A stretch of DNA of 64,000 nt from an uncultured Chloroflexia bacterium (lineage in GTDB: Bacteria; Chloroflexota; Limnocylindria; Limnocylindrales; CSP1-4). The stretch is taken from the NCBI GenBank assembly GCA_963734935.1, contig CAVTIO010000009.1, positions 85,698 through 149,697 on the forward strand, read 5' to 3'. Within the stretch, counting starts at the first letter, position 1. The number at the start of each line of letters is the position of its first letter. The translations under genes and the position numbers were made by a program. Of the stretch, positions 6,444 to 38,814 are shown piece by piece. The notes beneath the pieces were generated by a model. It saw only the letters and a program-made list of their open reading frames with translations. It was not told the origin of the DNA and searched no databases.

Positions 6444-6615
6444 CAGCTACAAGCCTCCCTGGCAGACGGGTCACGGCCAAAGGTCCGGTCAGCTCACCCT
6501 ATGGGGCGCCGGCAGCGCCTGTCAACGCGCAGGCACCCGGCTCGCCGTCAACCTCGCCGGGTGACACGCGCGGACGCACCGTCGGGCGTGCGGATCATGG
6601 TTTGCCGGACGGGCC

Positions 6616-18493: not shown

Positions 18494-18569
18494 GCGGGAG
18501 TAGCTCAGTTGGCAGAGCGGCAGCCTTCCAAGCTGCATGTCGCGGGTTCGAACCCCGTCTCCCGCTCCA
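18494..18569 (+). tRNA. tRNA-Gly (anticodon TCC), genomically encoded CCA
   Basis: GCGGGAG-TA-GCTC-AGTTGGCA-GAGC-G-GCAGC-CTTCCAA-GCTGC-ATGTC-GCGGG-TTCGAAC-CCCGT-CTCCCGC-T-CCA. Hand-folded cloverleaf with 7-bp acceptor stem, D arm, anticodon loop C-T-TCC-A-A and T arm GTTCGAA. Confidence 0.85.
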
Positions 18570-18805: not shown

Positions 18806-20380
18806 GTGATCGTCGGTGGCTCGGACCTGCGTGCGTCAAGTGCGCAGGCGGCGGAGCGACGGCTGACGCTGATCGCGTTGGCTGCCATTCTCGTGCTGGG
18901 CGCGGTGATCCGCCTGTGGAGCCTCGATGCCGTAGGCCTCAACAGCGATGAGGCCGTGTATTCGGGTCAGGCTGCCGCCCTCGCGGGCGATCCCATCTAC
19001 CGGGGGTTCTTCGCGATCTTCAGGGCGCACCCGCTGCTGGTGCAGTTCGCACTCGCCCTCGTGTACCAGCTCGGTGTCAACGACATAGCCGGCCGCCTCG
19101 TGAGCGTCGCCTTCGGTGTCGCTGCAATCCCATTGATGTACGCGCTCGGCAGCCTCATGTATGGGCGCAAGGCGGGAGTGATCGCGGCGGCCATCCTGGC
19201 GTTCATGCCTTACCACGTGATCGTGACCCGACAGGTCCTGCTCGATGGCCCCGAGACGACGCTGTGGCTCGCGACGATCTACGGGATCGCGCGCTACGCG
19301 GTGACGGCGCGACCGCGGTGGTTGTACGCGGCCGCGTTCGCCGGCGGGATGACCGTGCTGGCGAAGGAGACCGCGATTCTGGTCGTCGCGGTGGGCTTCG
19401 CCTTTGCGCTGATGACGCCGACTGTCCGGCTCACCCTGCGACGCATCGTGATCGCAAGTGCGGTGTTCGTGCTCGCGATCATTCCCTATCCAGCGGCGAT
19501 CCTGGTGGGCGGCGCGACGGGCACGGCGCAGCAGTACTTCGTGTGGCAGCTGCTACGGCGGCCGAACCACACGGGGACGTTCTACTTCGAGGTGCTCGGC
19601 GGCGCGATGGGCCTGGTGCTGCTGATCCTCGTGGCGCTCGGCGTGATCGCCGCCATCCGGCTTGCCACCTGGCAGGACCGGTTGCTGCTCGCGTGGCTGC
19701 TGGTGCCGTTCGCGTTCTTTGAGATCTGGCCGGTGAAGGGCTACCAGTATCTGCTGCCGATCGCCCCGGCCTGCGCGCTTCTCGCGACGCGGGCGCTCCA
19801 GGCGCCATGGTCCACGTGGCTCGCGCGATGGACAGGGCGACTCGATCTCGACGCGCGGCAGCTGTCAGGCGCGCGCGCCCTCGCCACGATCGCCGTGCCG
19901 TTGCTGCTGGTGGTCACGTTGGTGGTGCCATCCGTCAACGCTGTTTCGACAACCACCACGCAGGGTTCGCTGGCAGGCACCGGGGGCCTGCCCGGTGCGC
20001 GAGAAGCCGGCCTGTGGGTGCGGCAGAACGTGCCCGCCGGGTCGACATTCATGACCATCGGGCCGACGATGTCGAACATCATCGAGTTCTACGGCCAGCG
20101 AGAATCCCATGGGTTGAGCGTGAGCCCGAACCCGCTGCGCCGAAACCCCTCATACGACCCGATCATCAACCCTGATCGCTCGATCCAGACGCTGAAGCTC
20201 CACTACGCGGTCTGGGATATCTGGTCCTCATCGCGGTCCACGTTCTTCGCAGACATGCTCCAGCGCTACATCGACAAGTACCATGGGCGGCTCATTTACC
20301 AGCAGCATGCGATAGTGCGCGACGCAAACGGCAACCTGAGCGACCAGGTCGTGGCCGCCATCTACCAGCTCCAGCGATGA
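18806..20380 (+). CDS. GT-C fold glycosyltransferase, GT39/GT83 family (protein O-mannosyltransferase/ArnT-like)
   Basis: 524 aa polytopic membrane protein. First extracytoplasmic loop carries the DE motif ([10 protein letters not shown]), followed by ...[27 protein letters not shown]...LAKETAIL...; many TM helices and a soluble C-terminal domain. GTG start. Confidence 0.75.
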
Positions 20381-21762
20381 CGATGACATCCCGCATTCCG
20401 CATTCCCGAGCCACCGCCGTGGTGCTGGCGGCTGGGCTGCTCGCGGTGACCTTCACCGGCGCAGGCCCCGTGTCGAGTGTGGCCGCGGCGGGCCCTGACG
20501 CCGGCCACGAGCCGGCCACGCCGATTGAGCATCTCGTGGTCCTGATGCAGGAAAACCACACGTTCGACAACTACTTCGGCACGTACCCGGGTGCCGACAC
20601 CCCACCCAGCGACGTCTGCATGCCCCGGGACCCGACCGACCCGTCCCTGGGCTGCGTGGCGCCGTACCACCTCGACTCGCACCGGACGATTGACCTCAGC
20701 CACGGCCCGGAGGTCGCGAAGGCCGTCATCAACGACGGTGCGATGAACGGGTTCATCTCGGCGCAGAACAAGCGGAACCTGCCGGGCGAGGTCGCGATGG
20801 GCTACTACGACGGCAGTGACCTTCCCTTCTACTGGAACCTGGCCTCGACGTCCATCCTGGCCGATCGGTTCTTCAGCTCGGATGCGGGGGGTAGCCGCGA
20901 GAATCACATGTTCTGGGTGGCGGGCCAGGCCGGCAGCGCACAGGCTGCTCCTCCTGGCGGCTACCAGTTCGACACGATCTTCGACCGCCTCGAGGAGGCC
21001 GGCGTCTCCTGGCGCTTCTACGTGCAGAACTACGACTCGACGATCACCTACAGGACGCTCACGGGGGAGCCACAGGATTCCCAGACGATCTGGGTGCCCT
21101 TGCTCAACTTCGACCGCTTCATCGACGACCCTGCGCTGTCGTCGCACATCGTGGACGTGAGCCAGTACCACGAGGACCTGGCCGCCGGCACGCTTCCGGC
21201 CGTGTCGTACATCGTGCCGTCGGGCGCGAGCGAGCACCCGCCCGGTGACGTCACGATCGGGCAGGTGTACGGGGCGTCGCTCGTGACCGCGCTGATGCAG
21301 AGCAGCAGCTGGTCGAACAGCCTGTTCGTCCTGACCTGGGATGACTGGGGTGGCTGGTACGACCATGTCACCCCACCGCAGATCGATGTCGATGGACTTG
21401 GTCTGCGTGTTCCGGCCCTGTTCATGTCGCCGTACGCCCCACCTGGTCGCATCGACAGCACGGCCTATGACTTCACCTCGATCCTGCGGTTCATCGAGGA
21501 CAACTGGGGTATCGCCCCGCTCACGGCGCGGGACGCGACCGCCAGCAGCGTCGCGACGGAGCTGGACTTCCAGTCCCCGCCGAATGCAGCGGTGTTGCCG
21601 GGGTCCGTCTACCCGCCCGTTGAGAAGACCGACGGCGCAGCTCGGCTGCTGCTGTTCCTGATCTACGGCGTGATCTGCCTTGCCGTTCCGATCGGCGCGG
21701 TCGTGGTGTGGCGGCGGCGCCGGCCCCGCTCGCCCGTCGTGGAGCCGGGGGTCAGGGTCTGA
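20377..21762 (+). CDS. Phosphoesterase-family protein (PF04185; phospholipase C/acid phosphatase AcpA-like), secreted with C-terminal TM anchor
   Basis: [25 protein letters not shown] signature; signal peptide [13 protein letters not shown]; C-terminal [22 protein letters not shown]; ATGA overlap with the upstream gene. Confidence 0.75.
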
Positions 21763-23492
21763 TGGTCGCTTCGATCCAGCCGCGCGGCCCCGCCTTCGGT
21801 GGCGCTCGCGCGCAGCTGGCGCGCACGCTGGCTCCAGTGCTGATGCTGGTCCTCGCGGTGCTTGTCGCCCTGAGCACTGCGGCGCCCGCCCTGGCCGCCA
21901 AGAACACGACCGTCTCGATCAAGCTCAACGCGCCTCGTACCGCTCCGATCGGATCCGAGGTCTCGGTGACCGGGAAGATCCAGCGTGCCGATGGGAAGTC
22001 ACCTCGGGGCCTCCGGGTGGTCCTGTACATCGGCGGCCAGTACCTCGCGAGCGCACGAGCGGACGGAGCCGGTCGTATCCGCTTCACGATCCGCGGGGCG
22101 AACACGGAGGTCGCGCGTGACCTGCGCCTCCGCGCGGCTTTCGAGGGGGCAACCGGGATCTCGCCGAAGTCGGTCAGGAAGACGGTGACGATCCGGCCGG
22201 CCCACATCAGCGTGACCACAGTGCCCGCCGTCCCCGGCCTCCCGATCTCGATCGGCGATGTGGACAAGGTCACCGACGAGAGCGGTATGGTGACATTCGA
22301 CGTCGACCAGGTCGGCAACGTGAAGCTCGTTCCGCAGCTCGATGCCCAGGGCGATCCATTGACGCGGATCAGCTTCATCCGGTGGCAGGACAGCGTCTAC
22401 TCCCTCGCCCGGACGATCTCGGTGCGTGGCGACGCCGACTATGTGATCGGGCTCAGGGTTGCGTACCAGGGGAGCGTCGACTTCGCGGACCTCGACGGTC
22501 AGGCGGTGGACCCGTCGCTCATCGAAAGTGCGCGATTCACGTCATCCGGAGGCGGCGAGCTGAGCCTCACCAGCTTCGAGGACGTGTGGTGGGTGGCGGC
22601 CACCGCCGTGAGCCGGACTGGCGGCCTCCAGGAGTCGGACACCCTGTGGCGACTCGCCGAGGTCCAGATGTCCGGGGCGAACGTTGTCCACCGCGGCCAG
22701 CAGGCATACACCCCCACGCGCGGCGGCAAGTGGACCATCAACCTCCTGCTGTATGACCTTGCGATCAGAGCGAGTGACGCGGTCACCGGGGCAACCATCC
22801 ACGGGCCGGTGGTCCTGACCTACCCGGACGCCACCACGCAGACCGGCGAACCCGGTGACGATGGTCTGGTCAGGTTCAACGCGCTGCCGCGCGGGCAATA
22901 CACCGTCGTTGTCGACGTGGCTGGCGTGTCGCCCAAGACGCCGATCGCGCTGTCACGGTCGCAGGAAGCCGAGATCCGGATCATCTCCGCGCTGGATATC
23001 GCAGTCGCAGCCCTCCTCGCCGTGACGATCCCGATCCTGCTCTACGTCGTGGGTCGGGGCGTGCCCCGCGTCCAGGTCACTCGCCTCAAGGAGGCTGGTC
23101 GGCGCGGCGGTGCGCTGACCACCCAGGCGGGCGTGGCCGCTATGAGCCGGGGCCGAGCGGCGAGTGACGCCGTCAGGCGTGTCCCGTCCGACCTGACCAC
23201 GGTTGACCAGGGTCGCATGGCCGCAGCGCTCGAGTTTGCCGGGCTGATGGGCCGCCGATCATGGGCCGAGGCGCAATGGATCGTGGCGCGCCTCCGCTAT
23301 CGGGTCGCCGTCGCGCGCGGTCAACCCATGGACCCACCTGTGAAGCCGGTGGTCTCGCCCGCTCACGCCGCGACCTCCGGAGCGGGCGAGCCGACGCTTG
23401 AGTGCCCTCGATGCCATGGCCAGGTTCCGGAAGGTGCCTTGTTCTGCCGCACCTGCGGGCGCCTGCAGTCGAGCGCGCCCAAGGGTCGATGA
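21762..23492 (+). CDS. Hypothetical secreted/membrane protein with C-terminal zinc-ribbon (CxxC...CxxC)
   Basis: TGATG overlap with upstream stop; signal peptide LAPVLMLVLAVLVALSTAAPALAA; internal TM IAVAALLAVTIPILLYVVG; C-terminus ECPRCHGQVPEGALFCRTCGRL. The ORF-track start is a GTG at 21708 inside the upstream gene, so I prefer the ATG at 21762. Confidence 0.55.
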   Translation: MVASIQPRGPAFGGARAQLARTLAPVLMLVLAVLVALSTAAPALAAKNTTVSIKLNAPRTAPIGSEVSVTGKIQRADGKSPRGLRVVLYIGGQYLASARADGAGRIRFTIRGANTEVARDLRLRAAFEGATGISPKSVRKTVTIRPAHISVTTVPAVPGLPISIGDVDKVTDESGMVTFDVDQVGNVKLVPQLDAQGDPLTRISFIRWQDSVYSLARTISVRGDADYVIGLRVAYQGSVDFADLDGQAVDPSLIESARFTSSGGGELSLTSFEDVWWVAATAVSRTGGLQESDTLWRLAEVQMSGANVVHRGQQAYTPTRGGKWTINLLLYDLAIRASDAVTGATIHGPVVLTYPDATTQTGEPGDDGLVRFNALPRGQYTVVVDVAGVSPKTPIALSRSQEAEIRIISALDIAVAALLAVTIPILLYVVGRGVPRVQVTRLKEAGRRGGALTTQAGVAAMSRGRAASDAVRRVPSDLTTVDQGRMAAALEFAGLMGRRSWAEAQWIVARLRYRVAVARGQPMDPPVKPVVSPAHAATSGAGEPTLECPRCHGQVPEGALFCRTCGRLQSSAPKGR

Positions 23493-24718
23493 CCCTCCGC
23501 ACCGAGGGTTACCGGCAATCGATGCGACACAGCTCGATCGGTACCCGGGTGGTGCTGGTCGCGATGCTCGCCGCCGTGTGCTTCATCGGCGTCAGCCCCG
23601 GGGGTGTGGACGTCGTATCAGCCCGCCCGGCGGGCACGGCTGACGTCCTGTCGCGACACCAGGTCGCGGCGGGTGCCGCAACGAATCGGCCACTCGTGCT
23701 CGCCTACTACTACATCTGGTATCGAGAGGCCAGCTGGCAACGTGCCAAGACCGACCTCCCGGCGCTTGGACCGTACAGCTCCTCCGACCCTTCGGTGATC
23801 GCCCAGCACGTGGCCTGGGCGATGGCATCCGGCGTCGACGGCCTCATCGTCAGCTGGAAGCACGAGGCACGACTCGACGAGCCGCTGGAGCTCCTGGTCG
23901 ACGAGGCCACGGCCTCGGGGCTCAAGCTCGTCCTCCTGTACCAGGGCCTGGACTTCGATCGGCAGCCGCTGGATGTAGCCAAGGTCGAGGACGATCTCCA
24001 CTGGTTCCTCGATACATACGAGGCCTCGCCCGCGTTCGCGGCGTTCGGGCAGCCCACGGTCATCTGGTCTGGATCGTGGGGATACACGGACGCACAGATC
24101 GCGCGCGTGCGGGCGAGCATCGGCGCCCCGGAGCGCGTCCTGCTTCTCGGTTCGGAGAAGTCGGCCGCGGCGTACGCGTCCCGAGTCGACCTGTTCGACG
24201 GCGACGCGTACTACTGGTCATCACCTGACCCCCTGACCACGCCCCGCTACCAGCGCCGGCTCGACGAGCTGACCGCCGCAGTACGGGCCGACGCCGGACT
24301 GTGGATCGCACCCGCGGCTCCCGGCTTCGACGCCCGATTGGTGGGCGGGACCAACGTCGTCCCGCGGCGTGATGGGCAGACGTACCGGGCGGCATGGCAG
24401 GGTGCCCTCAACTCGAGCCCTGATGCCATCGGGATCATCAGCTGGAACGAGTTCAGTGAGAACTCACAGATCGAGCCGAGCCAGCTGTACGCGGACCAGT
24501 ACCTTGGGCTGACCGCCCAGCTGGTCTCGGAGCTGCCGGGCGGCGACCCCGCGGCACCGCCGCCCACGTTCGCGCCTGCTGAAACGGTTGCGCCGCGTGC
24601 GCCGGTCGCGCCGTCCAGCCCAACCGAGGGTGGCCTCGTCGCACTGCTCGCAGGTGCCGCCGCGATCCTGGTCCTCGTCGGCGTTGGCGCGGCGGCCCGT
24701 CGGAGGGTCGGCGAGTGA
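23489..24718 (+). CDS. GH99-like (endo-alpha-mannosidase-like) domain protein, secreted, C-terminal TM anchor
   Basis: LVLAYYYIWYREASW...LGPYSSSDPSVIAQHVAWAMASGVDGLIVSWKHE...GIISWNEFSENSQIE parallels the GH99 motifs YYxWYG, LGxYSSxDPSVI and SFNEWHEGTQIE. ATGA overlap with upstream stop; C-terminal LVALLAGAAAILVLVGVGAA. Confidence 0.6.
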   Translation: MTLRTEGYRQSMRHSSIGTRVVLVAMLAAVCFIGVSPGGVDVVSARPAGTADVLSRHQVAAGAATNRPLVLAYYYIWYREASWQRAKTDLPALGPYSSSDPSVIAQHVAWAMASGVDGLIVSWKHEARLDEPLELLVDEATASGLKLVLLYQGLDFDRQPLDVAKVEDDLHWFLDTYEASPAFAAFGQPTVIWSGSWGYTDAQIARVRASIGAPERVLLLGSEKSAAAYASRVDLFDGDAYYWSSPDPLTTPRYQRRLDELTAAVRADAGLWIAPAAPGFDARLVGGTNVVPRRDGQTYRAAWQGALNSSPDAIGIISWNEFSENSQIEPSQLYADQYLGLTAQLVSELPGGDPAAPPPTFAPAETVAPRAPVAPSSPTEGGLVALLAGAAAILVLVGVGAAARRRVGE

Positions 24719-25269
24719 GCCGCGGCCGGATCGGGATCCTCGTGCTGCTCGCGGTCGGTGCGGTGCTCGCGGTGACGTGGTTTGTGCCGACCTTCGCGGG
24801 CCCGGTCTTCGTCACGGTCCGGGCCGTGCTCGTCCCGCTCGACGATGGTGGTGCGGTCGCCAGCGTTCGCCTGCCCGATGGATCCGTGGCGAACGCGAGT
24901 GGCGTCCGGGTCGACCTGGTGGTCACGAACCGCTACCCGCTGCCCGTGATTGCGTCCTTCCAGGGCCCCGCGTTCGTGGCCGTCGCGACCCCAACCGACG
25001 CGGACACGCGTGGCCTGCCCTGGACGGTGACGGCCGATGATCCGACGCTCGAGCAGACGGACGACTCGCCGGACCTGGGCGCCGGCGACCGCGTGGCGTT
25101 GGTTGACCCGGGCGAGCACGCCACGGAGATGACGCCGGGGGCGCCGACATTCGATCTCGCCGCGAGCGGTGGGCGGCTGTTGCCCGGCACCTACTCGGTG
25201 GACGTCAGCGCTTATGGGGTGACCGCCGCGCCGGTGCAGCTTGTGGTGCTCCCCGGTCCGACGGACTGA
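24715..25269 (+). CDS. Hypothetical membrane-anchored secreted protein
   Basis: GTGA overlap with upstream stop; N-terminal TM/signal IGILVLLAVGAVLAVTWFV; no recognisable family. Confidence 0.45.
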   Translation: MSRGRIGILVLLAVGAVLAVTWFVPTFAGPVFVTVRAVLVPLDDGGAVASVRLPDGSVANASGVRVDLVVTNRYPLPVIASFQGPAFVAVATPTDADTRGLPWTVTADDPTLEQTDDSPDLGAGDRVALVDPGEHATEMTPGAPTFDLAASGGRLLPGTYSVDVSAYGVTAAPVQLVVLPGPTD

Positions 25270-25736
25270 CCGACCAATCCGGGTCACCAGGCCCGTTCTC
25301 GGTGCGGCGCGGCACCACATGTTCGCGTGGCGCACCGGCGCGGTCGCCAATCGTCGTGGCTTGCCGGCGTTCGCCGGCCGGTGACCAAGCGTTCTTCACG
25401 GCGGGGATTCAGCATTCCCGAATGGCTGGCCACCGGTGCGCTGCGGTGCCGTTGGGTGCCGTCGGGTAGCCCCATCGAGAGCGAACACGGCCGTCACGCC
25501 GGACCCGATGGATCGCACGGGCTGAGCCGCCAACGCCGCTGGCTGATCTTCGATAGGGCATCTGCCGCCCTGACCATCGCGCCTCTCGACGTTCCGAGCC
25601 AGGCGCCATTCGATGGTGAGCAGCGAACGGCGGCCACGACGTGGCAGCGGGCGAGGGTGGCGAGCGGGCCAGGTCCTCACTGACTGGCGCGTCCCGGGGG
25701 CTCGGACCGGGAGCGGACGAAAGTGGAGGCCACGAC

Positions 25737-28058
25737 ATGCGCTACAAGGCGCTTTCTCCGACCATGCGAACCAGCTCGCCGGCGAGCGCGACCGCGAGTC
25801 TGGTGCCGAGTCGCGGTTCGCGATCGGCCCACCGTTGGCGCTTCGCGGGCGTGGTCATGTCGCTGACGCTGCTGCTGCTGGTTCTGCCCTGGGCAGCAGC
25901 CAGTGCGGCAGCCACCCTGGAGGTCGCCCCCTCGGTCGCGCGAGCGGACACGCAGGTCACGGTTCACGGTCAGGGGTTCGCCCCGCACACGCGGGGCTCG
26001 CTCTCGTTCGACGGCGACGACATCGGGATGCCCACCTACCGGACCCGCCGCGATGGATCGTTCAGTACGGTCATGACCGTGCCGGCGGACGCGACCGTCG
26101 GGGATCACGTCGTCACTGCGGCCTCCGGCGGCAACGGCAAAGGCAAGGGGAATCAGTCCCGGGTCTCGTCCGTCTCCGTGACCATCACCGTCGACGCGCC
26201 GACGCCTACCCCGACTCCCACTCCCAAGCCGACTCCCACCCCCACCCCCACGCCCACGCCAAAGCCAACTCCAACTCCCACGCCGACTCCCACGCCGACT
26301 CCCGCCCCCACGCCAACTCCCACGGGTACGCCGACTCCAGCTCCCACGCCGACTCCCACGGGTACGCCGGACGGCGGATCGGATGTCCAGCCCGCGTTCC
26401 CCATCCGGGCGGCCTTCTATTACCCGTGGTTCCCGGAGGCCTGGAACCAGCAGGGCCTTGACCCCTTCACGAAGTACCATCCGACGCTCGGCTACTACGA
26501 CTCGAGCGCATCCTCGATCCTCGCCGCGCACCTCGCGGCGTTCAGGTACGCGGGAATCCAGGTGGGTATCGCCTCGTGGTGGGGCCCGGACAGCCGCACG
26601 GATAGCCGCATTCCCACGATCCTGGCGGCCACGGCCGGAACGTCCACGCGCTGGACGGTCTATGTCGAGTCCGAGGGGCAGGGTGATCCATCCGTGAACG
26701 AGATCGCCTCCGACCTCACGTATGTGCGGGACCGCTACGGCTCCGATCCTTCGTATCTGCGTGTCGACGGGCGCTTCGTGGTGTTCGTCTACGCGGACGC
26801 CAACGATGGCTGCGGCATGGTGGATCGCTGGAGGAGTGCCAACGCCAATATCAACGCGTACCTTGTTCTCAAGGTGTTTCCCGGTTACCGGGCCTGTGCC
26901 GGCCAGCCCGACAGCTGGCACCAGTACGCCCCGGCCTCTGCGGAGGACAGCCAGGCCGGGTACAGCTTCAGCATCAGCCCCGGGTTCTTCAAGGCCAACG
27001 AGTCGACCCCGCGCCTCACGCGCGACCCGGCCCGATGGGCCCAGAACGTGCGTGACATGGTCGCGTCGCATGCCCCCTGGCAGCTCGTGACCACCTTCTC
27101 CGAGTGGGGTGAGGGCACGGCCGTCGAGAATGCCGCCGAGTGGAACACGATCTCGGGCCACGGAAGCTACCTGGACACCCTGAACCTGGATGGCCAGGTC
27201 TCCACGCCCACTCCCACGCCAACGCCCACCCCCACACCGATTCCCACGCCGGTGCCGACCGGCGACCCGATCCTCGTCGGGGCCGGTGACATCAGCTCCT
27301 GCTCCTCGAGCGGCGACACGGCCACCGCTGCCCTGCTCAGGTCCATCGGTGGCACCGTGTTCACAGCGGGCGACAATGCGTACGAGTCCGGTTCGACGAC
27401 CGAGTACGCCAACTGCTACGACCCGACCTGGGGTCAGGAGCTGGCGCGGACGCGACCCGCGCCGGGCAACCACGAGTACGGCACCGCGGGCGCCGCCGGC
27501 TACTTCTCGTACTTCGGCGCCGCCGCCGGCGACCCGTCGCAGGGCTGGTACGCATACGACCTGGGTGGATGGCGCATCTACGCCCTCAACAGCAACTGCA
27601 GCCAGGTTGGCGGTTGCGGGGCCGGATCACCCCAGGAGGCGTGGCTCCGATCGGACCTTGCGGCCCACCCGGCTGCGTGCGTCGCCGCTTACTGGCACCA
27701 TCCCCGGTTCTCGTCGGGTGAGCACGGGAACCACACCTCCGTCCAGACGTTGTGGCAGGACCTGTACGACGCCGGCGCCGAGATCGTGATGACCGGCCAC
27801 GATCACGACTACGAGCGCTTCCTGCCGCAGACGCCAACGGGCACCATCGACACGGCACGCGGCCTCGTGGAGTTCGTGGTGGGCACAGGCGGCAAGAGCC
27901 ACTATGCGATCACCTCAACGGTTGCCAACAGTGCCGTTCACGACGACTCAACCTATGGAGTCCTGAAGCTGACCTTGCACGCCAACAGCTGGGATTGGGC
28001 GTTCATTCCGGCCTCAGGTGGGACGTTCACCGACGGCGGCAGCGCCAACTGCCATTGA
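25737..28058 (+). CDS. Secreted multidomain protein: Ig-like domain, Pro/Thr linker, GH99-like domain, Pro/Thr linker, metallophosphatase (calcineurin-like/PAP-like)
   Basis: GGAGG SD 7 nt before the ATG at 25737. Hydrophobic signal region [17 protein letters not shown]. Linker [24 protein letters not shown]99-like [12 protein letters not shown]...[15 protein letters not shown]...[14 protein letters not shown]. Metallophosphatase GDISSC...GDNAYESG...GNHEY...GHDHDYERF. Confidence 0.7.
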
Positions 28059-28166
28059 GCGTCGCCAGGGGCGGATCACGAGTTCCCCGTATACTCCGCG
28101 AACCGGACCGCCCCAGTGTCGCAGCCGCATGGCGTGGAGGGCTGCGCGAGCCATTCGTGGAGTGTC

Positions 28167-29267
28167 ATGAGCGACCGCGCAGTGCCCCGTCTGCAAGGTA
28201 CGGGCTCCAAGCCGCATGGCCACCGTGAGGGCCTCCGAGGCGTGGTCGCGGCCGCCGGCCTTCTGGCGATGCTGGTGGTCGCCTGTGGCGGCTCGTCGGC
28301 AACGTCGACGAGCGTCCCCTCGACCGACATGACTGCCGGTCCACCGTCGATCGTTGCGCCATCCGCAACGTCGCCCGTCGGGCCGTCGACGTCGCCCGGG
28401 AGCGCCTCTCCGACCGCAGCAACGACCCCGACCCCGGCCACGCCGCTCCCATCCGGGTCCTCGGCGCCCTCGGCCGGCGAATGGCCGTCGATCGGGCACA
28501 TCTACGAGATCGTGTTCGAGAACCACGCCTTCAAGGATGTGATCGGCAACAGCGATGCACCGTACCTGAATGAGCTCGCCGGGCGCTACGGCCTCGCCAC
28601 CAGCTATCTGGCGATCACCCACCCCTCTGAACCGAACTACCTCGCGCTCTGGTCTGGCTCAACACAGGGTGTGACCGACGACGACGTCCATGACTTCAAG
28701 ACAGGATCGACCCTGGCAGACCAGATCGAACAGGCCGGTCGTGCCTGGCATGTGGCCGCCGAGAACGTTCCGCCGGACTGCTTCACGGGCGCCACGGCAA
28801 AGGGGGGAGCTGACGGGACCGGCAAGTACGTGCGAAAGCACGAGCCGGCCATCAACTGGACGAGCGTGTCGGGTGACGCCCGGCGGTGCGCCAACATCGT
28901 CGACCTCACCCACTTCGATCCCGGCCAGGGCGACTTCTGGCTGATCGTGCCGAACATGTGCCATGACATGCACGACTGCTCGCTGACGGTCGGGGACGCG
29001 TGGCTCAAGTCGTTCTTGCCGACGATTCTGTCGTCGGCCGCCTATCAGGCCGACGGGCTCGTGCTGATCACCTTCGACGAGGGCGTGGGAGATCCGCGCG
29101 GGGGGCGCGTGGCAACCCTGGTCATCAGCCCGGCGGGCAGGATGGGTTTCACTTCGGCGACGCCGCACGACCACTATTCGATGCTGCGGACGATCGAGAC
29201 CCTATGGGGCATGCCATGCCTGGCAAACAGCTGTACCGCGAACACGCTGCGCGAGTTCTTCCCCTGA
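28167..29267 (+). CDS. Phosphoesterase-family lipoprotein (PF04185-like acid phosphatase/phospholipase C)
   Basis: Lipobox LLAMLVVACGGSS followed by a Ser/Pro/Thr-rich linker; IGHIYEIVFENHAFKDVIGNSDAPYLNELAGRYGLATSY...ITHPSEPNYLALWSGST. ATG at 28167 preferred over the ORF-track start. Confidence 0.65.
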   Translation: MSDRAVPRLQGTGSKPHGHREGLRGVVAAAGLLAMLVVACGGSSATSTSVPSTDMTAGPPSIVAPSATSPVGPSTSPGSASPTAATTPTPATPLPSGSSAPSAGEWPSIGHIYEIVFENHAFKDVIGNSDAPYLNELAGRYGLATSYLAITHPSEPNYLALWSGSTQGVTDDDVHDFKTGSTLADQIEQAGRAWHVAAENVPPDCFTGATAKGGADGTGKYVRKHEPAINWTSVSGDARRCANIVDLTHFDPGQGDFWLIVPNMCHDMHDCSLTVGDAWLKSFLPTILSSAAYQADGLVLITFDEGVGDPRGGRVATLVISPAGRMGFTSATPHDHYSMLRTIETLWGMPCLANSCTANTLREFFP

Positions 29268-29316
29268 GTCAGATCGGCGCTCGGGCCGAAGATGACGGGT
29301 CTGCCGGGACGCTGGC

Positions 29317-31911
29317 ATGACCGACGATCGCGCGCCCGGCCGCAGCCCGTCCCGGGAAACGCGCAATCGGGTACTGCTCGCGATCGGCCTGCTCGCGGCA
29401 TCGGTCACGCTCATCGTCGTCGCATGGGCCTGGTCGGGCTCGTCGACCCAGCCGGGCGATCCCGGTGCATCCCCGCTCGCCGCGGCATCGCTGGATCCCG
29501 GCGACTTCAGATTGCTCCCTGCGCTGGCCGGCTCGGATCGCCCGAGTCCGACGCCCAGCCCCAGCCCCAGCCCGAGTCCGCCGTCCGGGCTCCGGGTCAA
29601 GCTCGTGCCGGGCGTTCCCGCGCCGCTCCGGGCCGCGACGATCCGGGTGACGTGGCCCGCCGTTGCCCCTGCAACCCTTGATCGAGGTGCCTGGCTGCGC
29701 ACGCTGGTCGATGGCGAGGACGCGGGGACGGCTGCGCTGGGTGCGGGTGCATCAAGCGAGGTCGAGTCGATCCGCGTCGGGTCCGACTACACGATGCAGC
29801 TTCGGGCACGGCGCGCAGCCCGCGCAGTGCCCGTTGCGGAGGACTCGTTCCGGCTGGAGTCGATCGATGATGCCGCTCCGCGTGTCACGTATGCGGGCAG
29901 CTGGGCTGCCGCGGGATACCCGGGATACCTGCGGCACAGCGCCAGCTACACCAGCAAGCGCGGTGCAACCGCCACCTTGGCGGTGACCGGGCGCAGCGTT
30001 GCCTGGATCGGTCCGGTCGGTCCGGGTCGTGGAACCGCCATCGTTCTCGTCGATGGCAAGGTCGCTGCCACCGTGTCGACCCTGGCGTCCCACTACAAGC
30101 CGCGGCAGACGCTATTCGTGCGCTCGTGGTCGCGAACGAGCAGTCACACCATCACGATCGAGGCACGCGGCGGCGGCAACGTGGCGATCGACTCGTTCAC
30201 GGTCGTTGCCGACGCTGCGCAGCCGCAGCCGACCACCGGTCCGGCCCCCTCCGGCCCCGCTCCGACCGGGAACCTGGCGAGCGTGTCCCTGCCGATCCGG
30301 GCGGCCCTCTTCTACGCCTGGTATCCGGAGGCATGGACGTCGGGACCGGACGGCACGTTCGGCGCGTTCCACCCATCCGCCGGTGCATACGACTCCAGCG
30401 ATCCGGCCATCATCGGCGACCAGATCGAGGCCTTGCTCTATGGTCACATCACGTCGGGCCTGGTCTCCTGGTGGGGCGAGGGGACGCGCTCGGACGGGCG
30501 GATGCCGGCGCTTCTGGATGCGGCGCACGGGACCGACTTCACATGGGCCGTCAATGTCGGCCTGGAATTGGTGGGCGATCCCGATCCGGGTCAGATATCG
30601 AGCATCCTGCGCTCCGTTGCCGACCGTTATGGGGACGATCCATCCTACCTCCGGATCGACGACCGTTTCGTGGTCGCCGTGAGCGGCGACGCGGCCGACG
30701 GATGTGCCATGGCGGAGCGCTGGACACAGGCAAACGACGTCAACGCCTACCTCATCCTGCCCGCCGTCGATGGCTACGAGGGGTGCGACGCCCAGCCCGA
30801 CCTGTGGTACGGCGCCGATCCTGCACAGCACGCCCAGGCGGCGGGGAGTGCCAGCTACACCATCAGCCCCGGCTACTCAGCACCCGACGGGTCGACAGAA
30901 CTGGCCCGGGACCCGGATCGCTGGGCGGCAGACGTGCGCGCGATGGTTGCGTCCAGTGCCGGCCTCCAGCTTGTCGCTTCCTTCAATCAATGGGGCGAGG
31001 ACTCGAGCGTCGAGAGCGCGCGCGAGTGGGAGTCGAGCTCCGGCTATGGCCGCTACCTGGACGTGCTCCATCTTGACGGGAATGTGGGCGCCGTTGCCTC
31101 GGCGCCAGGCAGCGACCCCATCCTCGTGGGTGCGGGCGCGATTGCCGGGTGCGAGTCATCCAACGACGAGGCGACCGCCGCGCTGGTCGCCGCAGTCCCG
31201 GGCACGGTGTTCACGGTCGGCGACAATGCCTTCCCGTCAGGTAGCCTCCAGGACTTCGAGGACTGCTACGGACCATCCTGGGGCGCCTTCCTCGATCGGA
31301 CCCGGCCCGCGGTCGGTACGCACGAATACCAGACGCCGGGCGCGGCCGGATACTTCGACTACTTCGGCAACGCGGCAGGCAAACCCAAGAAGGGGTATTA
31401 CGCATACAACCTCGGTCAATGGCGCATCTACGTGTTGAACGCGAACTGCAGTCAGATCGGTGGTTGCAGCCGCGGCTCACCCCAGGAACGCTGGCTCCGC
31501 GCCGACCTCAAGGCGCATCCGAAGGCCTGTATCGGCGCGTACTGGCAGCTCGCGCGTTTCAGCTCCGGACGGTTCGGTGACGACAGCCGGGTGGAGGCGT
31601 TCTGGAAGGACCTGTACCAGTACGGAGCCGAGTTCGTGATCAACGGGCACGACCACAACTACCAGCGATACGCGCCCATGGACCCGACCGGCCAGTCTGA
31701 TCCGACCGGCGGCATTCGAGAGTTCATCGTCGGCACCGGCGGGTACGGCCACACCAGGGTCCAGCCCGGCCCGATCCCGAATCGCGAGGTCGCCAACGAC
31801 CAGACCTACGGCGTCCTCAGGCTGATGCTGCACAAGGATTCCTATGAGTGGCAGTTCCTCGCGACCGGAGATGCGTCGTTCACGGATTCGGGCGCCGAAG
31901 CCTGCCACTGA
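29317..31911 (+). CDS. Membrane-anchored multidomain protein: lectin/Ig-like domain, GH99-like domain, metallophosphatase (paralog of 25737..28058)
   Basis: N-terminal TM VLLAIGLLAASVTLIVVAWAW; linker PSPTPSPSPSPSPP; GH99-like AALFYAWYPEAWTSGPDG...GAYDSSDPAIIGDQ...VASFNQWGEDSSVE; metallophosphatase GDNAFPSG...GTHEY...GHDHNYQRY. It has the same architecture as the upstream paralog. Confidence 0.7.
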   Translation: MTDDRAPGRSPSRETRNRVLLAIGLLAASVTLIVVAWAWSGSSTQPGDPGASPLAAASLDPGDFRLLPALAGSDRPSPTPSPSPSPSPPSGLRVKLVPGVPAPLRAATIRVTWPAVAPATLDRGAWLRTLVDGEDAGTAALGAGASSEVESIRVGSDYTMQLRARRAARAVPVAEDSFRLESIDDAAPRVTYAGSWAAAGYPGYLRHSASYTSKRGATATLAVTGRSVAWIGPVGPGRGTAIVLVDGKVAATVSTLASHYKPRQTLFVRSWSRTSSHTITIEARGGGNVAIDSFTVVADAAQPQPTTGPAPSGPAPTGNLASVSLPIRAALFYAWYPEAWTSGPDGTFGAFHPSAGAYDSSDPAIIGDQIEALLYGHITSGLVSWWGEGTRSDGRMPALLDAAHGTDFTWAVNVGLELVGDPDPGQISSILRSVADRYGDDPSYLRIDDRFVVAVSGDAADGCAMAERWTQANDVNAYLILPAVDGYEGCDAQPDLWYGADPAQHAQAAGSASYTISPGYSAPDGSTELARDPDRWAADVRAMVASSAGLQLVASFNQWGEDSSVESAREWESSSGYGRYLDVLHLDGNVGAVASAPGSDPILVGAGAIAGCESSNDEATAALVAAVPGTVFTVGDNAFPSGSLQDFEDCYGPSWGAFLDRTRPAVGTHEYQTPGAAGYFDYFGNAAGKPKKGYYAYNLGQWRIYVLNANCSQIGGCSRGSPQERWLRADLKAHPKACIGAYWQLARFSSGRFGDDSRVEAFWKDLYQYGAEFVINGHDHNYQRYAPMDPTGQSDPTGGIREFIVGTGGYGHTRVQPGPIPNREVANDQTYGVLRLMLHKDSYEWQFLATGDASFTDSGAEACH

Positions 31912-31998: not shown

Positions 31999-32532
31999 TC
32001 ACGGCATCCGATGCGATGATCCGCGCCTGCGAACGACCAGCGACCCGAGCGCGACGACGATGACGATCACCGGGATGATCGCGAGCATGACCACGCTCAC
32101 GTTGGCCTGCGCGCCTGCGTCAGCTGGGCTCTCGGGCGTCGTGACGGGGGAGGGGATCTCCGCTGCGGGGGTGGGAGACGGTCCCGGGGTCACCACGTAG
32201 CGGGCGTGGGCCACGCACGCACGCGCCCCCTTTCCTGCCCGTGCGGTGACCTTCCAGCGACCCTGGTCGCCCCAGGCGGCGGCCAACCGAAGGCGGAATG
32301 CCCCGTTGGCGTCCGACGACACACGGAGGGTCTGGGTACCGGTGGGGCCGACAATCTGAACGGTGACCCGTCGGTCGGCTCCGAACCGGACACCACGGAT
32401 CACGAACGGCGAACCGCTCTCCACGCTGCCGGGGACACGGACGCGGCAGCGCGACGCGGCGTCGGCGGTCCACGTCGGCACGACCGACGTGGCAAGCACG
32501 GCGATGAACGCAAGGATCGCGGCAAGCGCCAC
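31999..32532 (-). CDS. Hypothetical secreted protein with C-terminal TM anchor
   Basis: Candidate GTG start at 32532 giving signal-like ALAAILAFIAVLATSVVPTWTADAA; C-terminal VSVVMLAIIPVIVIVVALGSLVVRRR. The longer ORF to 32751 overlaps the giant gene out of frame. Start uncertain. Confidence 0.35.
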   Translation of the reverse strand: MALAAILAFIAVLATSVVPTWTADAASRCRVRVPGSVESGSPFVIRGVRFGADRRVTVQIVGPTGTQTLRVSSDANGAFRLRLAAAWGDQGRWKVTARAGKGARACVAHARYVVTPGPSPTPAAEIPSPVTTPESPADAGAQANVSVVMLAIIPVIVIVVALGSLVVRRRGSSHRMP

Positions 32533-32588
32533 CCGGGGCGCCGGTCGGGCCGGCGCCCGCGGGACCCCGGCCACCGGCGGGAGGCGTC

Positions 32589-35500
32589 CTATTGCCCGAC
32601 GACGATGGTCAGCGTGGGCGGCGTGGTCGTCTCGCGCGAGGCGAACACCTCCTGGCTGCCGCCCGTACCCTGAGCGACCGTGAGGACGTTGCCCTCCGCC
32701 GCCGCCACGAGGCTGGCGACGTCGGTGGACGTCACGACGCCCGGGCCGCAATGGGTGGCGGTGGTGTCGACGGCGGCGCCGACGGCCGGGCGACTGGCAT
32801 AGGTGATGGTCCCCTCGTCCCAGGCGGATCCATCGGTGTCATACACGGTGTAGCCGATGCCCGCGTTCTTGCTGCACTGGTAGGTCAGGGTGAGCGTGGC
32901 GGACTGCACCGCCCCCGCGACGTTCGAGAGATCGAACGCCATGTAGCTGTACCACGTTGACTGCCCTGATCCCTTGATGCGCAGGCCCGTGCTCGTCCCG
33001 TAGTTCGAGGTCGGGCTGTCGCTGGACACGTAGCTGTCCTGGATCGGGTTGAGCACGAAGGTCTGGCTCGCATCGGTAGTCACCTGGTTCGACGGGTCGC
33101 TGAGCGGCGAGTGGTTGCCCGCCGCGTCGAACGCGTCGACCGTGTAGCTGTGCGTGGAGCCCGGCGCCAGGCCGGTGTCCGTGAACGCCAGGGTCGCCCC
33201 GTCCACGGTCGCGACCGGGGTTGTGTCACTGTCACGGTAGACGTCGTAGCCGGTCACTCCGACGTCATCGGTCGAGGCACTCCACGACACGTCGATGATC
33301 GAGGAGCCATTGACCGTGGCCGTGACCGAGCCTGGCGCCGTTGGCGCCTGGCTGTCGCCACCGACCGTGATCGTGGTCGTCGCAGGCGTGCTGTCCCCGT
33401 ACAGGTTCGAGGCGACGAGGGACACCGTGTAGGGGCCGGCTGCGGCCCAGGCATGGCTGGGATTGGCTTGGGTGCTCGTCGACCCGTCCCCGAAGTCCCA
33501 CGCCCACGCCGTCGGGCTGCCACTGCTGGTGTCCGTGAACTGGACGGGCACGCCCACCGTCGGGCTCGTGGTCGAGGAGGTGAAGGACGCGGCGGGCGCG
33601 TCCGTCGCGCCCGTCCCGACGACGATGGTCAGCGTGGGCGGCGTGGTCGTCTCGCGCGAGGCGAACACCTCCTGGCTGCCGCCCGTACCCTGAGCGACCG
33701 TGAGGACGTTGCCCTCCGCCGCCGCCACGAGGCTGGCGACGTCGGTGGACGTCACGACGCCCGGGCCGCAATGGGTGGCGGTGGTGTCGACGGCGGCGCC
33801 GACGGCCGGGCGACTGGCATAGGTGATGGTCCCCTCGTCCCAGGCGGATCCATCGGTGTCATACACGGTGTAGCCGATGCCCGCGTTCTTGCTGCACTGG
33901 TAGGTCAGGGTGAGCGTGGCGGACTGCACCGCCCCCGCGACGTTCGAGAGATCGAACGCCATGTAGCTGTACCACGTTGACTGCCCTGATCCCTTGATGC
34001 GCAGGCCCGTGCTCGTCCCGTAGTTCGAGGTCGGGCTGTCGCTGGACACGTAGCTGTCCTGGATCGGGTTGAGCACGAAGGTCTGGCTCGCATCGGTAGT
34101 CACCTGGTTCGACGGGTCGCTGAGCGGCGAGTGGTTGCCCGCCGCGTCGAACGCGTCGACCGTGTAGCTGTGCGTGGAGCCCGGCGCCAGGCCGGTGTCC
34201 GTGAACGCCAGGGTCGCCCCGTCCACGGTCGCGACCGGGGTTGTGTCACTGTCACGGTAGACGTCGTAGCCGGTCACTCCGACGTCATCGGTCGAGGCAC
34301 TCCACGACACGTCGATGATCGAGGAGCCATTGACCGTGGCCGTGACCGAGCCTGGCGCCGTTGGCGCCTGGCTGTCGCCACCGACCGTGATCGTGGTCGT
34401 CGCAGGCGTGCTGTCCCCGTACAGGTTCGAGGCGACGAGGGACACCGTGTAGGGGCCGGCTGCGGCCCAGGCATGGCTGGGATTGGCTTGGGTGCTCGTC
34501 GACCCGTCCCCGAAGTCCCACGCCCACGCCGTCGGGCTGCCACTGCTGGTGTCCGTGAACTGGACGGGCACGCCCACCGTCGGGCTCGTGGTCGAGGAGG
34601 TGAAGGACGCGGCGGGCGCGTCCGTCGCGCCCGTCCCGACGACGATGGTCAGCGTGGGCGGCGTGGTCGTCTCGCGCGAGGCCAGGTTGATCGTGCCCGC
34701 ATAGCCGGTGAGGCCGAGGCTCAGCAGGCCACCCTGGGCAGGCGCGACCAGCGAGTCGACATCCGCCGACCCGTAGACACCCGACGTGAGCGGCCCGGAC
34801 GAGTTCACCACCGCGCCCATGTCAGGCGCGGTGTCGTAGACGATGGCGTACTCATCCCAAGTGGTGTCCGCGACCCCGGCCACGCCGAAGCCCTGCGAGC
34901 CCGTCGTCGTGTTCGACAGCACGCCGAGCGTAGCCGACTGGATCTGCCCGACCACGTTGGAGAGGTCGAACTTGAGGTAGCTCGCCGTCCCGCTCGAGTT
35001 GACGTACAGCGAGGTCGCTGTTCCGCGGTTGGTCGTCGGGATCGATGGGTTGACGTACGCGTCCGCGATGGGGGTCAGCACCAGGGTGACCGTGCCGCTG
35101 GGCGTCGTGGCGGACGCGGGCCCACCCGGCGGTGACCGGTTGCCGGCAGCATCGAAGGCCTCAACGGTGTAGCTGTGGTTGGAGCCGGGCGCCACGACCG
35201 TGTCCGCATACGCGAGCGTGTCCGGGTCAAGGGTCACGAGTGGTGTGGTGGCGTCGTCCTTGAACACCTCGTAGCCGGCGACGCCGACGTTATCGGTGGC
35301 GGCGTTCCAGGTGACGTCAATCTCACCCGGACCGTTGGCCGCTGCCGACACGGAGCCGGGCGCTTCGGGGGCGATGCTGTCCGCGGTTCCCTTGCAGGAA
35401 AGGAGGCCGCTGTCCTCCACCGACCCGGTCGGGGTCTGGAACGAGAAGGTCGCGCTGGTCGGGAACAGGTTCAGGCGGAGCGCCCCGAAGTTGGCGAAGT

Positions 35501-36963: not shown

Positions 36964-37024
36964 GACGAGCCCCCAGTGCCTGTTCAGGTTCGCGGAGTCT
37001 GCCGGCTCATGCCGGTTGATCTTC

Positions 37025-38785: not shown

Positions 38786-38814
38786 TCCGCTCCTTCGCCG
38801 ACCGCTTCCGGGGC

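Follow-up and report, generated by a model that had tools for sequence, protein, structure and literature searches.

GH99-like glycosidase domains joined to phosphoesterases within a conserved glycosylation gene cluster of Chloroflexota and Actinomycetota

Introduction

The small glycoside hydrolase family 99 (GH99) works by an unusual epoxide-intermediate mechanism, and its known roles are the trimming of animal N-glycans and the digestion of yeast mannan by gut Bacteroides. Its sister family GH71 acts on alpha-1,3-glucan. Purple acid phosphatases (PAPs) and PF04185 enzymes of the AcpA and phospholipase C (PLC) type are classic secreted phosphate-scavenging enzymes. Here we analyse a stretch of 64,000 nucleotides (nt) from an uncultured Chloroflexia bacterium (contig CAVTIO010000009.1; the whole stretch is called the window, G+C ~70%), in which a predicted secreted protein, p6, combines a GH99-like domain with a PAP-type domain and is encoded within a conserved cluster of glycosylation and hydrolase genes (Table 1). 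An earlier note on this DNA, made from the sequence alone, had drawn attention to p6 and its neighbours.

Two further kinds of described system are relevant to this locus. Three-component extracytoplasmic glycosylation is exemplified by GtrA/GtrB/GtrC, by CsbB/GtcA/YfhO acting on teichoic acids, by Ppm1/Pmt in protein O-mannosylation and by PpgS/Rv3779. Catalytically dead glycosidase homologues are used as binding proteins, as in the chitinase-like lectins, and pseudophosphatases are also known.

In GH99 enzymes two glutamates serve as base and acid of the epoxide-intermediate mechanism, and the E333Q and E336Q variants of BxGH99 as well as the E404Q variant of human MANEA are inactive (PMC6055899; bioRxiv 10.1101/2020.06.30.179523). 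An aromatic residue at the -2 subsite (human position 189, W126 in BxGH99) has been linked to mannose preference.

Results

The p6 protein joins a GH99-like domain to a PAP-type domain

Three GH99-like proteins with motifs mirroring those of GH99 had been proposed in the window, and both proposals were borne out. Against the Pfam family PF16317 (Glyco_hydro_99; gathering cut-off 33 bits) p4, p6 and p8 scored 59.6, 53.7 and 45.9 bits, respectively, and the motifs FYYxW, PxLGxYxSxDP and FNEWxEGTxxE were aligned with BtGH99. Pfam aligned only about one third of PF16317 in p6 and p8 (positions ~43-162 of 341), and a family profile covered the N-terminal, central and C-terminal blocks of BtGH99. 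When a profile from 17 domain sequences was compared with the Protein Data Bank (PDB), GH99 entries were retrieved exclusively (BtGH99, E=9e-25). The p6 sequence alone retrieved BtGH99, BxGH99 and MANEA at E~1e-9, while p4 aligned with BtGH99 over almost the entire barrel (residues 90-331 on 91-339, E=3e-14). Structural comparison gave a matching result: with an AlphaFold model of p6 residues 216-773 (predicted local distance difference test, pLDDT, 85.9; predicted template-modelling score, pTM, 0.55), Foldseek identified MANEA, BtGH99 and BxGH99 at E=3e-10 to 8e-9 and target-normalised TM-scores of 0.55-0.63, and GH99 enzymes were the sole TIM-barrel glycosidases in the top 50.

Retention of the catalytic glutamates held for two of the three proteins. 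The pairs E456/E459 of p6 (SEWGE) and E321/E324 of p4 (WNEFSEN) align with the catalytic E329/E332 of BtGH99, equivalent to E333/E336 in BxGH99, and p8 lacks the pair (QWGE). The accepted GH99 catalytic motif is EW[H/G]E (PMC11025385), so the EWGE of p6 falls within known variation. Outside the clade of p8 the Glu-x-x-Glu pair is near-invariant in homologues. Both glutamates of p4 lie in an EFSE motif, and WNEFSEN, YYYIWF and VSWK are conserved in 23 orthologous loci. At the -2 subsite of p6 and p8, the second tryptophan of SWWG (W282 in p6) falls on BxGH99 W126, and it is near-invariant in the clade; p4 has a lysine here (VSWK in its orthologues) and lacks the aromatic residue.

Assignment to GH71 or another TIM-barrel family was considered and rejected. 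Only p4 passes the GH71 cut-off (PF03659, 40.8 bits vs 34), and all PDB profile and fold matches are to GH99. GH71 has DYGE (PMC11025385), and p4 and p6 carry the GH99-type Glu-x-x-Glu. The outcome that the earlier note had named as contradicting its proposal, a different TIM-barrel family devoid of the GH99 residues, was not what we found for p6 and p4, whose GH99-like domains match only GH99 in the PDB and have the glutamate pair.

Judged by its sequence, the C-terminal domain of p6 is a complete PAP-type domain. All seven ligands are present, namely D518, D546, Y549 (GDNAY), N578 (GNHEY), H654, H688 and H690 (GHDHDYER), and these positions are near-invariant in 45 homologues. The domain scores 24.7 bits against Metallophos (PF00149; cut-off 21.5). 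A profile of the domain retrieved PAPs exclusively from the PDB (E=2e-10), with GNHE, WHxP and GHxHxYER aligned, and the top 30 Foldseek matches of the p6 model were mammalian and plant PAPs (best E~2e-12).

GH99-like domains are repeatedly joined to two phosphoesterase folds

Among 8000 candidates scored, 7845 proteins matched the two-domain region of p6 at E<=1e-5, and the best 120 relatives are nearly all PF16317-PF00149 fusions, many of them with CBM96. The GH99-like domain was also compared with 1.84 billion representatives clustered at 50% identity, of which 2551 matched at E<=1e-3 (1356 at E<=1e-10, 635 at E<=1e-30). The database entries of this family include many gene fragments. There are thousands of relatives in Chloroflexota and Actinomycetota metagenomes. 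The architecture had been thought rare, a view that the protein, genome and representative searches overturned.

A PAP-type partner is present in 38 of the best 150 representatives, a PF04185-type partner in 16 others, and both in 1, with the domains in either order. One contig of an Acidimicrobiales metagenome-assembled genome (L012, 3792..6110) encodes a p6 orthologue with the same N-terminus and a 77% identical GH99-like domain, followed by a PF04185-type domain instead of the PAP, and further fusions to PF04185-type domains occur in other relatives. That the domain is fused with phosphoesterases of two unrelated folds, and in either order, is the strongest sign in these data that both activities serve one process, and it independently supports the functional link between sugar cleavage and phosphate removal that had been suggested for p6. 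Elsewhere the GH99-like domain is fused to GH5, GH16, FG-GAP repeats and other modules (P0170, P0181, P0182).

Two individual loci show further arrangements. In a Chloroflexia locus (L031, 10121-12947) one gene appears from tblastn matches to encode CBM96, two tandem GH99-like domains and a PAP-type domain. At a second locus (L081, 10001-18418) a PPK2 polyphosphate kinase gene is the neighbour of a stand-alone GH99-like-PAP fusion, with a TMEM260-like GT-C gene close by; this may be coincidence.

The p8 protein belongs to a doubly degenerate paralogue clade

The proteins p6 and p8 share 50% identity over 576 residues spanning both domains and are true paralogues, as had been proposed. In p8 the GH99 general-base glutamate is replaced by Q558 (QWGE, not EWGE). 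Its phosphatase ligand positions read A, D, F, T, Q, H, H, such that four of the seven are replaced (D→A, Y→F, N→T, H→Q), with GAGAIAG, GDNAF, GTHEY and WQLARF at the sites of the family's D, Y, N and H, and no Metallophos match was detected in this domain even at E<=1. The catalytic-site table and the Pfam scan rule out p8 as a second active enzyme, and the claim that each fusion contains a complete metallophosphatase stands for p6 and fails for p8.

The same pattern was observed in 13 orthologue clusters that are 52-66% identical to p8 and match only PF16317 in Pfam. The first glutamate is glutamine in 10 of the 13 and the second is aspartate in 11, and every cluster that covers the phosphatase-like domain lacks several metal ligands; the orthologue on the Acidimicrobiales contig L012 (7519..10170), for example, has FNQWAD, GAGAIAS, GDNAF and GNRDY. 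The remainder of both domains is well conserved inside the clade. Because the pattern is common to the 13 orthologue clusters, the degeneracy of p8 is no sequencing accident, and p8 belongs to a conserved, doubly degenerate paralogue clade.

A model of p8 residues 85-305 comprises an immunoglobulin (Ig)-like domain followed by a beta-sandwich whose nearest solved relatives in a fold search are CBM6, CBM35 and CBM36. N-terminal Ig- or lectin-like beta domains had been suggested for both fusions; this agrees with p8, and for p6, whose N-terminal beta domain gave no family match in the profile scan, it is still a guess. Taken together, p8 looks like a conserved binding protein derived from an enzyme.

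The fusion gene adjoins a conserved glycosylation cluster

A genome scan (one genome per species; the source species lies outside the scanned collection, and the best identity was 59-60%) identified 78 related loci in Limnocylindria, Chloroflexia, Anaerolineae, Thermomicrobiales, Thermoleophilia, Gaiellales, Acidimicrobiales and Nanopelagicales. Those of Thermomicrobiales include the cultured Thermomicrobium sp. CFH 73360 and Thermalbibacter longus. Searches with the window proteins by tblastn revealed a conserved order of GT2, GtrA fusion, PMT_2, PF04185, g3 and anchored GH99-like genes. In at least 14 loci from Chloroflexia, Thermomicrobiales, Limnocylindria, Thermoleophilia and Acidimicrobiales (G+C 40-69%), this block adjoins a (CBM96-)GH99-like-PAP gene, often divergently. 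The trio of g11 (PF00535), g10 (PF04138) and g1 (PF13231) occurs together in at least 10 related loci and in L079, a metagenome contig with a p8 orthologue and the same layout as the window. A Pfam census of the 87 other open reading frames of the 14 syntenic loci found no further conserved family. The unit extends from ~18806 to 39627 (~21 kb) and is larger than the interval 23489..31911 put forward in the earlier note, which is embedded in the cluster with the GT2, GtrA and PMT_2 genes.

The glycosyltransferase g11 is of the polyprenyl-phosphate hexose or N-acetylhexosamine synthase type (GtrB/Ppm1/ArnC-like) by its predicted family; in NCBIfam it comes closest to AglJ, PpgS, dolichyl-phosphate hexose transferase and ArnC, with scores far below the equivalog cut-offs in every case. 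It is syntenic across the related loci, as is g10 in many of them (35-68% identity). The fusion of GtrA to a cytoplasmic domain in g10 is conserved in the syntenic loci. This cytoplasmic domain had no Pfam or PDB sequence match; it contains a Walker-A-like TDTGKTS and gives a weak match to HprK-related kinase A (TIGR04352, E=1.2e-6, below cut-off). The GT-C protein g1 is a candidate transferase using a polyprenyl-phosphate sugar outside the membrane, and its L079 orthologue additionally matches PF02366 (PMT).

Both phosphoesterases assigned to PF04185 in the earlier note, g2 and g7, were confirmed by Pfam. The g2 protein has hydrophobic segments at residues 12-33 (N-terminal signal) and 418-447 (C-terminal membrane anchor), and its gene adjoins g1 in at least 14 loci. 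The g7 protein matches the C-terminal two-thirds of PF04185 and has a signal or anchor and a Ser/Thr/Pro-rich linker; its start codon is uncertain. The g3 protein is predicted to combine a beta-rich region outside the membrane, where there is a weak CarboxypepD_reg-like match, with a single transmembrane segment and a zinc-ribbon tail in the cytoplasm, and is syntenic in at least 14 loci at 27-41% identity. All hydrolases of the locus have a predicted N-terminal hydrophobic signal or anchor.

The large protein g9 contains Big_7, an intact PAP-type metallophosphatase domain, fn3, PKD and three CBM96 (DNRLRE) domains. Its orthologue in L079 has 1501 residues, and PAP and CBM96 neighbours occur in many loci. 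Part of g9 is present twice in tandem: an exact duplication of 1020 bp (32595-33662 = 33615-34682, 100% identity) repeats a PKD-fn3-CBM96 block of ~340 residues and is either a very recent event or an assembly artefact. The signal peptide and TP/TA-rich linker of g9 (36328-37242, minus strand) are in another frame than its body (32589-36518), the switch lying inside an 18-nt-periodic Pro/Thr repeat at ~36514-36843. Either this frameshift is a sequencing or assembly error or g9 is a pseudogene.

Locus layout and flanking genes

Eight genes (g1, g2, g3, p4, g5, p6, g7 and p8) occupy the plus strand from 18806 to 31911. They had been described as one translationally coupled string. Coupling is apparent in 18806..25269, with overlaps of 4 nt between g1 and g2 (ATGA), 1 nt between g2 and g3 (TGATG), 4 nt between g3 and p4 and 4 nt between p4 and g5 (GTGA), and it does not extend from p6 onward, where gaps of 467 nt before p6 and of 57 and 49 nt after it (p6-g7-p8) were found. 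The 467-nt gap between g5 and p6 (25270-25736) matched nothing in Rfam and showed no convincing consensus for a promoter or terminator, and may hold a promoter or regulatory site for the p6-g7-p8 group. Promoter and terminator scans performed no better than on shuffled sequence.

The barrel of p4 lies between an N-terminal signal and a membrane anchor at the C-terminus (residues 378-405). In p6 a signal peptide (1-58), a beta domain (59-154) and a Pro/Thr linker (155-211) precede the GH99-like domain, and a second Pro/Thr linker separates it from the PAP-type domain. The p8 protein begins with a signal anchor. For g5, no match was found in Pfam or NCBIfam, or by tblastn in the 78 related loci. 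Membership of gx, immediately downstream of g9, in the unit is uncertain.

Table 1 Features of the locus and their coordinates in the window
Feature	Position	Strand	Basis
tRNA-Gly (TCC)	18494..18569	+	Rfam tRNA 70.4 bits; ARAGORN
g1, multi-pass GT-C glycosyltransferase (PMT_2)	18806..20380	+	PF13231 E=1.1e-18; ~11 hydrophobic segments
g2, PF04185 phosphoesterase (PLC/AcpA family)	20377..21762	+	PF04185 E=1e-73, full profile
g3, conserved membrane protein	21762..23492	+	weak Pfam matches, all under cut-off; hydrophobic segments
p4, standalone GH99-like protein	23489..24718	+	PF16317 59.6 bits; PF03659 (GH71) 40.8 bits
p4 GH99-type barrel, residues ~68-344	23690..24520	+	
g5, small protein with N-terminal hydrophobic segment	24715..25269	+	no family match
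p6, secreted GH99-like and PAP-type two-domain protein	25737..28058	+	Pfam; PDB searches; AlphaFold/Foldseek
p6 GH99-like domain, residues 216-487	26382..27197	+	
p6 PAP-type domain, residues 509-773	27261..28055	+	
g7, second PF04185-type phosphoesterase	28116..29267	+	PF04185 E=1.3e-26, profile positions 104-356
p8, degenerate p6 paralogue	29317..31911	+	50% identity to p6; PF16317 45.9 bits
p8 Ig-like and CBM6/35/36-like beta-sandwiches, residues 85-305	29569..30231	+	
p8 GH99-like domain, residues 321-590	30277..31086	+	
p8 PAP-like domain, residues 599-864	31111..31908	+	
gx, small membrane-anchored protein, weak Ig-like match	31999..32574	-	weak matches; hydrophobic segments
g9, large secreted multi-domain PAP-type protein	32589..36963	-	Pfam
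g10, GtrA-type membrane domain and ~440-residue cytoplasmic domain	37025..38890	-	PF04138 E=6e-15
g11, GT2 glycosyltransferase	38815..39627	-	PF00535 E=1.3e-31

The tRNA-Gly gene directly 5' of g1, the sole structured RNA matched in the Rfam scan, is a boundary marker and no functional part of the cluster. The flanks of the window hold glycogen and trehalose enzymes and unrelated functions, with GlgA, GlgP, GH57 and TreS-Mak upstream of the cluster and GlgE downstream. Since glycogen and trehalose genes lie on both sides, the cluster may be an insertion. The TreS-Mak gene (3093-6446, minus strand) is a single open reading frame in which a trehalose synthase-like alpha-amylase, a maltokinase N-terminal cap and an APH kinase are fused, and it is part of a GlgE-pathway gene set scattered over the window.

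Discussion

We tentatively propose that this locus couples extracytoplasmic cleavage to dephosphorylation of a phosphate-bearing, probably mannose-type, envelope glycan. The families of its components lead us to infer that the region belongs to a self-contained, conserved locus for a cell-envelope glycan. Here g11 would load a sugar onto polyprenyl phosphate, g10 would help to move the polyprenyl-linked sugar across the membrane, and g1 would transfer it to an acceptor on the outer face; by analogy with the three-component systems, this set would decorate or build an extracytoplasmic glycoconjugate. The exported hydrolases p4, g2, g7, g9 and p6 would act on the resulting glycan or a similar polymer, with p4 as a membrane-anchored GH99-like endo-glycosidase, g2 and g7 as phosphoesterases and g9 as a CBM96-bearing purple-acid-type phosphatase. 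Most likely, p6 places a GH99-type endo-glycosidase and a binuclear purple-acid-type phosphatase on one chain for one phosphate-bearing glycan. Its GH99-like domain, with the glutamate pair and the -2 tryptophan intact, would use the neighbouring-group mechanism of GH99 to cut an alpha-mannoside-type linkage, and its phosphatase would then remove the exposed or nearby phosphate. The PAP and PF04185 enzymes would take phosphate off the same material. The likeliest role for p8 is that of a non-cutting binder of the same polymer, whether lectin-like, scaffolding or regulatory. Domain identities, the state of the catalytic residues, the recurrence of the fusions and the synteny are observations; a common substrate, its mannose and phosphate character, the sequence in which the two reactions follow each other and what p8 does are the inferred elements of this proposal.

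A hypothetical glycosyl-phosphate-linked polymer is the simplest explanation of the pairing, as cutting the sugar side of a phosphodiester would leave a phosphomonoester for the phosphatase. CBM96 is common in the family, and its founding member binds the anionic polymer alginate (PMC9971899); its presence is compatible with an anionic target and proves nothing. The synteny favours a glycan of the organism's own envelope over pure scavenging of foreign polymers, and does not settle the matter. A bolder proposal, which we consider unlikely, is that the fusions are a new class of phosphoglycan-processing enzymes, that the cluster builds or remodels an undescribed phosphodiester-linked polymer in the envelope of Chloroflexota and deep-branching Actinomycetota, and that the p8 clade acts as a lectin or regulator. 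In that case a GH99-type mechanism would cleave the glycosyl-phosphate or an adjacent alpha-mannosidic linkage, and the attached phosphatase would remove the exposed phosphate.

Several observations weigh against coupled cleavage and dephosphorylation of a mannose-type envelope glycan. The identity of p6 to solved GH99 enzymes is 18-20%, and the p6-type domain, at ~270 residues, is ~70 residues shorter than the ~340 of GH99. Opposite the HIEPF of BtGH99, p6 has YVESE and the family consensus YYELE, with only the glutamate kept, and the H[I/L]EPY motif (human 222-226) is conserved in nearly all GH99 clades (PMC11025385). A deletion of ~30 residues in p6 covers the region holding BxGH99 Y252 (BtGH99 195-255), to which only ~32 p6-type profile positions correspond, without alignment; the tyrosine at this position (human 323) is not essential (PMC11025385). 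The specificity of the p6 GH99-like domain may, from its sequence, differ from alpha-1,2-mannosidic cleavage. Within the GH99-like domain of the AlphaFold model, confidence is lowest at the invariant NEWGEGT catalytic loop (pLDDT <50, model residues 240-248) and good in the surrounding barrel, and the low pTM makes the relative orientation of the two p6 domains unreliable. On account of the differences from canonical GH99 in identity, length and the HIEPY motif, together with the EFSE, lysine and GH71 score of p4, the domains of p4, p6 and p8 are treated here as a distant GH99-related clade and not as proven GH99 endo-mannosidases. Neither the whole window nor the census of related loci revealed phosphate-regulon genes, a phosphate transporter, TagF, LCP or Stealth, and in view of this lack of regulon, transporter and polymer-synthesis genes the phosphate-bearing polymer is hypothetical. 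Many fusion paralogues lie away from the glycosylation cluster in unrelated contexts, so the link to the cluster is not obligatory. Finally, multi-domain secreted hydrolases can combine unrelated activities.

The main rival explanation, which we regard as somewhat unlikely, is that a secreted toolkit strips phosphate from foreign glycophospho-polymers, such as fungal phosphomannan, teichoic acids or phosphorylated exopolysaccharides, with glycosylation genes that only glycosylate the Pro/Thr linkers of the exported enzymes or are unrelated to them. It fits the enzyme families and fits the synteny less well. The PAP and PF04185 AcpA/PLC-type families match known secreted phosphate scavengers and several phosphoesterases share the locus; however, a Pst transporter, PhoU, PhoR/P, a sugar transporter and a downstream exo-glycosidase are absent from the window and not conserved in the 14 loci. 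Relatives are found in large paralogue arrays with CBM96, typical of polymer-degrading secretomes, and many copies occur outside the glycosylation cluster, one of them beside the PPK2 gene, yet the tight, often divergent adjacency of the fusion gene and the GT2-GtrA-GT-C set across two phyla is hard to explain if the two are unrelated. The linkers of these proteins are long, and Pro/Thr linkers are typical O-mannosylation sites in actinobacteria. Also in favour of scavenging, the bacterial GH99 enzymes characterised so far break down yeast mannan, a foreign polymer (PMC11025385). Against it, one of the GH99-like proteins and one phosphoesterase of the locus are membrane-anchored and not released.

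Two other explanations appear improbable. One is that the fusions have no common substrate and co-export a mannanase-like glycosidase and a general acid phosphatase without mechanistic meaning. The joining of the GH99-like domain to GH5, GH16, FG-GAP repeats and other modules, the flexible Pro/Thr linkers between domains and the absence of a confident inter-domain contact in the model (pTM 0.55) are consistent with this explanation. Such independence sits poorly with the partners found: phosphoesterases of two folds dominate, in both orders (38 PAP, 16 PF04185 and 1 with both per 150), whereas glycosidases appear only singly among the matches listed. All three domain types also occur as separate proteins encoded close together, both in the window and in relatives. 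In addition, both domains decayed together in the p8 clade, which suggests that they had earlier worked as one unit. The other, of the same low probability, is that the GH99-like domains are not alpha-mannoside hydrolases and have another specificity (alpha-1,3-glucan as in GH71, or a non-mannose envelope sugar) or act mainly as binding or transglycosylating modules. This would accommodate the GH71 match and the -2 lysine of p4, the low identity of p6, its deletion at the Y252 region and its YVESE for HIEPY (PMC11025385), and the persistence of the fold without catalysis in the p8 clade. It is opposed by the Glu-x-x-Glu pair, which is of the GH99 type and not the GH71 DYGE (PMC11025385) and is near-invariant outside the p8 clade, by the conservation of the -2 tryptophan in p6 and relatives, and by the exclusive retrieval of GH99 from solved structures in both sequence-profile and fold searches.

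Both domains of p6 belong to known superfamilies, and the protein is not a new kind of thing. What is new is a large uncharacterised GH99-related clade, its repeated joining to phosphoesterases, a conserved locus and a doubly degenerate paralogue clade. The earlier note was aware of no described enzyme of this kind, and our literature search likewise found no paper on GH99-like/phosphatase fusions, most subscription journals being outside its coverage, so that absence is unproven. The large sister clade (~635 clusters at 50% identity and E<=1e-30) occurs in soil and hot-spring Chloroflexota and Actinomycetota, phyla with poorly known envelopes, and orthologues exist in the cultured Thermalbibacter and Thermomicrobium. 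The repeated joining to phosphatases and the lipid-linked-sugar set point to a phosphate-containing surface glycan or to a route recycling one. Should the two domains prove independent in action, p6 would be no more than another modular secreted hydrolase. The p8 protein is a clear natural case of a two-domain pseudoenzyme in which both active sites are lost.

Comparison with known systems

Like BtGH99, BxGH99 and human MANEA, p6 has a (beta/alpha)8 barrel with FYYxW, PxLGxYxSxDP, SWW and FNEW(G/H)E motifs. The human and Bacteroides enzymes are ~40% identical to each other, whereas p6 is only 18-20% identical to solved GH99 enzymes; p4 differs by its EFSE and its lysine at -2, and p8 by QWGE. 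The domain type of the window is fused to phosphoesterases and CBM96, and a survey of GH99 evolution mentions no phosphatase fusions (PMC11025385).

With PAPs (mammalian TRAP/ACP5 and ACP7, and the kidney-bean and wheat enzymes), p6 shares the binuclear metallophosphatase fold, all five blocks (GD, GDxxY, GNHE, H and GHxH) and the seven ligands. These include the predicted counterpart of the tyrosine that gives PAPs their Fe(III) charge-transfer colour, and the GHDHDYER of p6 aligns with the plant GHVHAYER. It differs in its identity of 16-21%, in the absence of the plant-type N-terminal PF16656 domain and in the attached glycosidase-like domain; conserved cysteine pairs and a C-terminal CH motif are specific to the p6 clade. 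Four of the seven ligands are missing from p8. Compared with the PF04185 enzymes (AcpA acid phosphatase and bacterial phospholipase C), g2 matches the whole profile and g7 its C-terminal two-thirds, and in relatives this fold takes the PAP position beside the GH99-like domain. The window proteins fall far below the equivalog cut-offs for phosphatidylcholine-specific phospholipase C and Burkholderia acid phosphatase, and g2 is anchored by a C-terminal transmembrane segment.

Similar to dead glycosidase homologues and pseudophosphatases, p8 keeps both folds and a CBM-like module and has lost the general-base glutamate and most metal ligands. In p8, however, both domains of one chain are degenerate at once, and its binding role is putative. 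As in the three-component systems, the locus co-encodes a GT2 polyprenyl-phosphate sugar synthase, a GtrA-family protein and a GT-C transferase. Here, in contrast, GtrA is fused to a large cytoplasmic HprK-like domain, and the set always occurs with a PF04185 phosphoesterase, g3 and GH99-like hydrolases.

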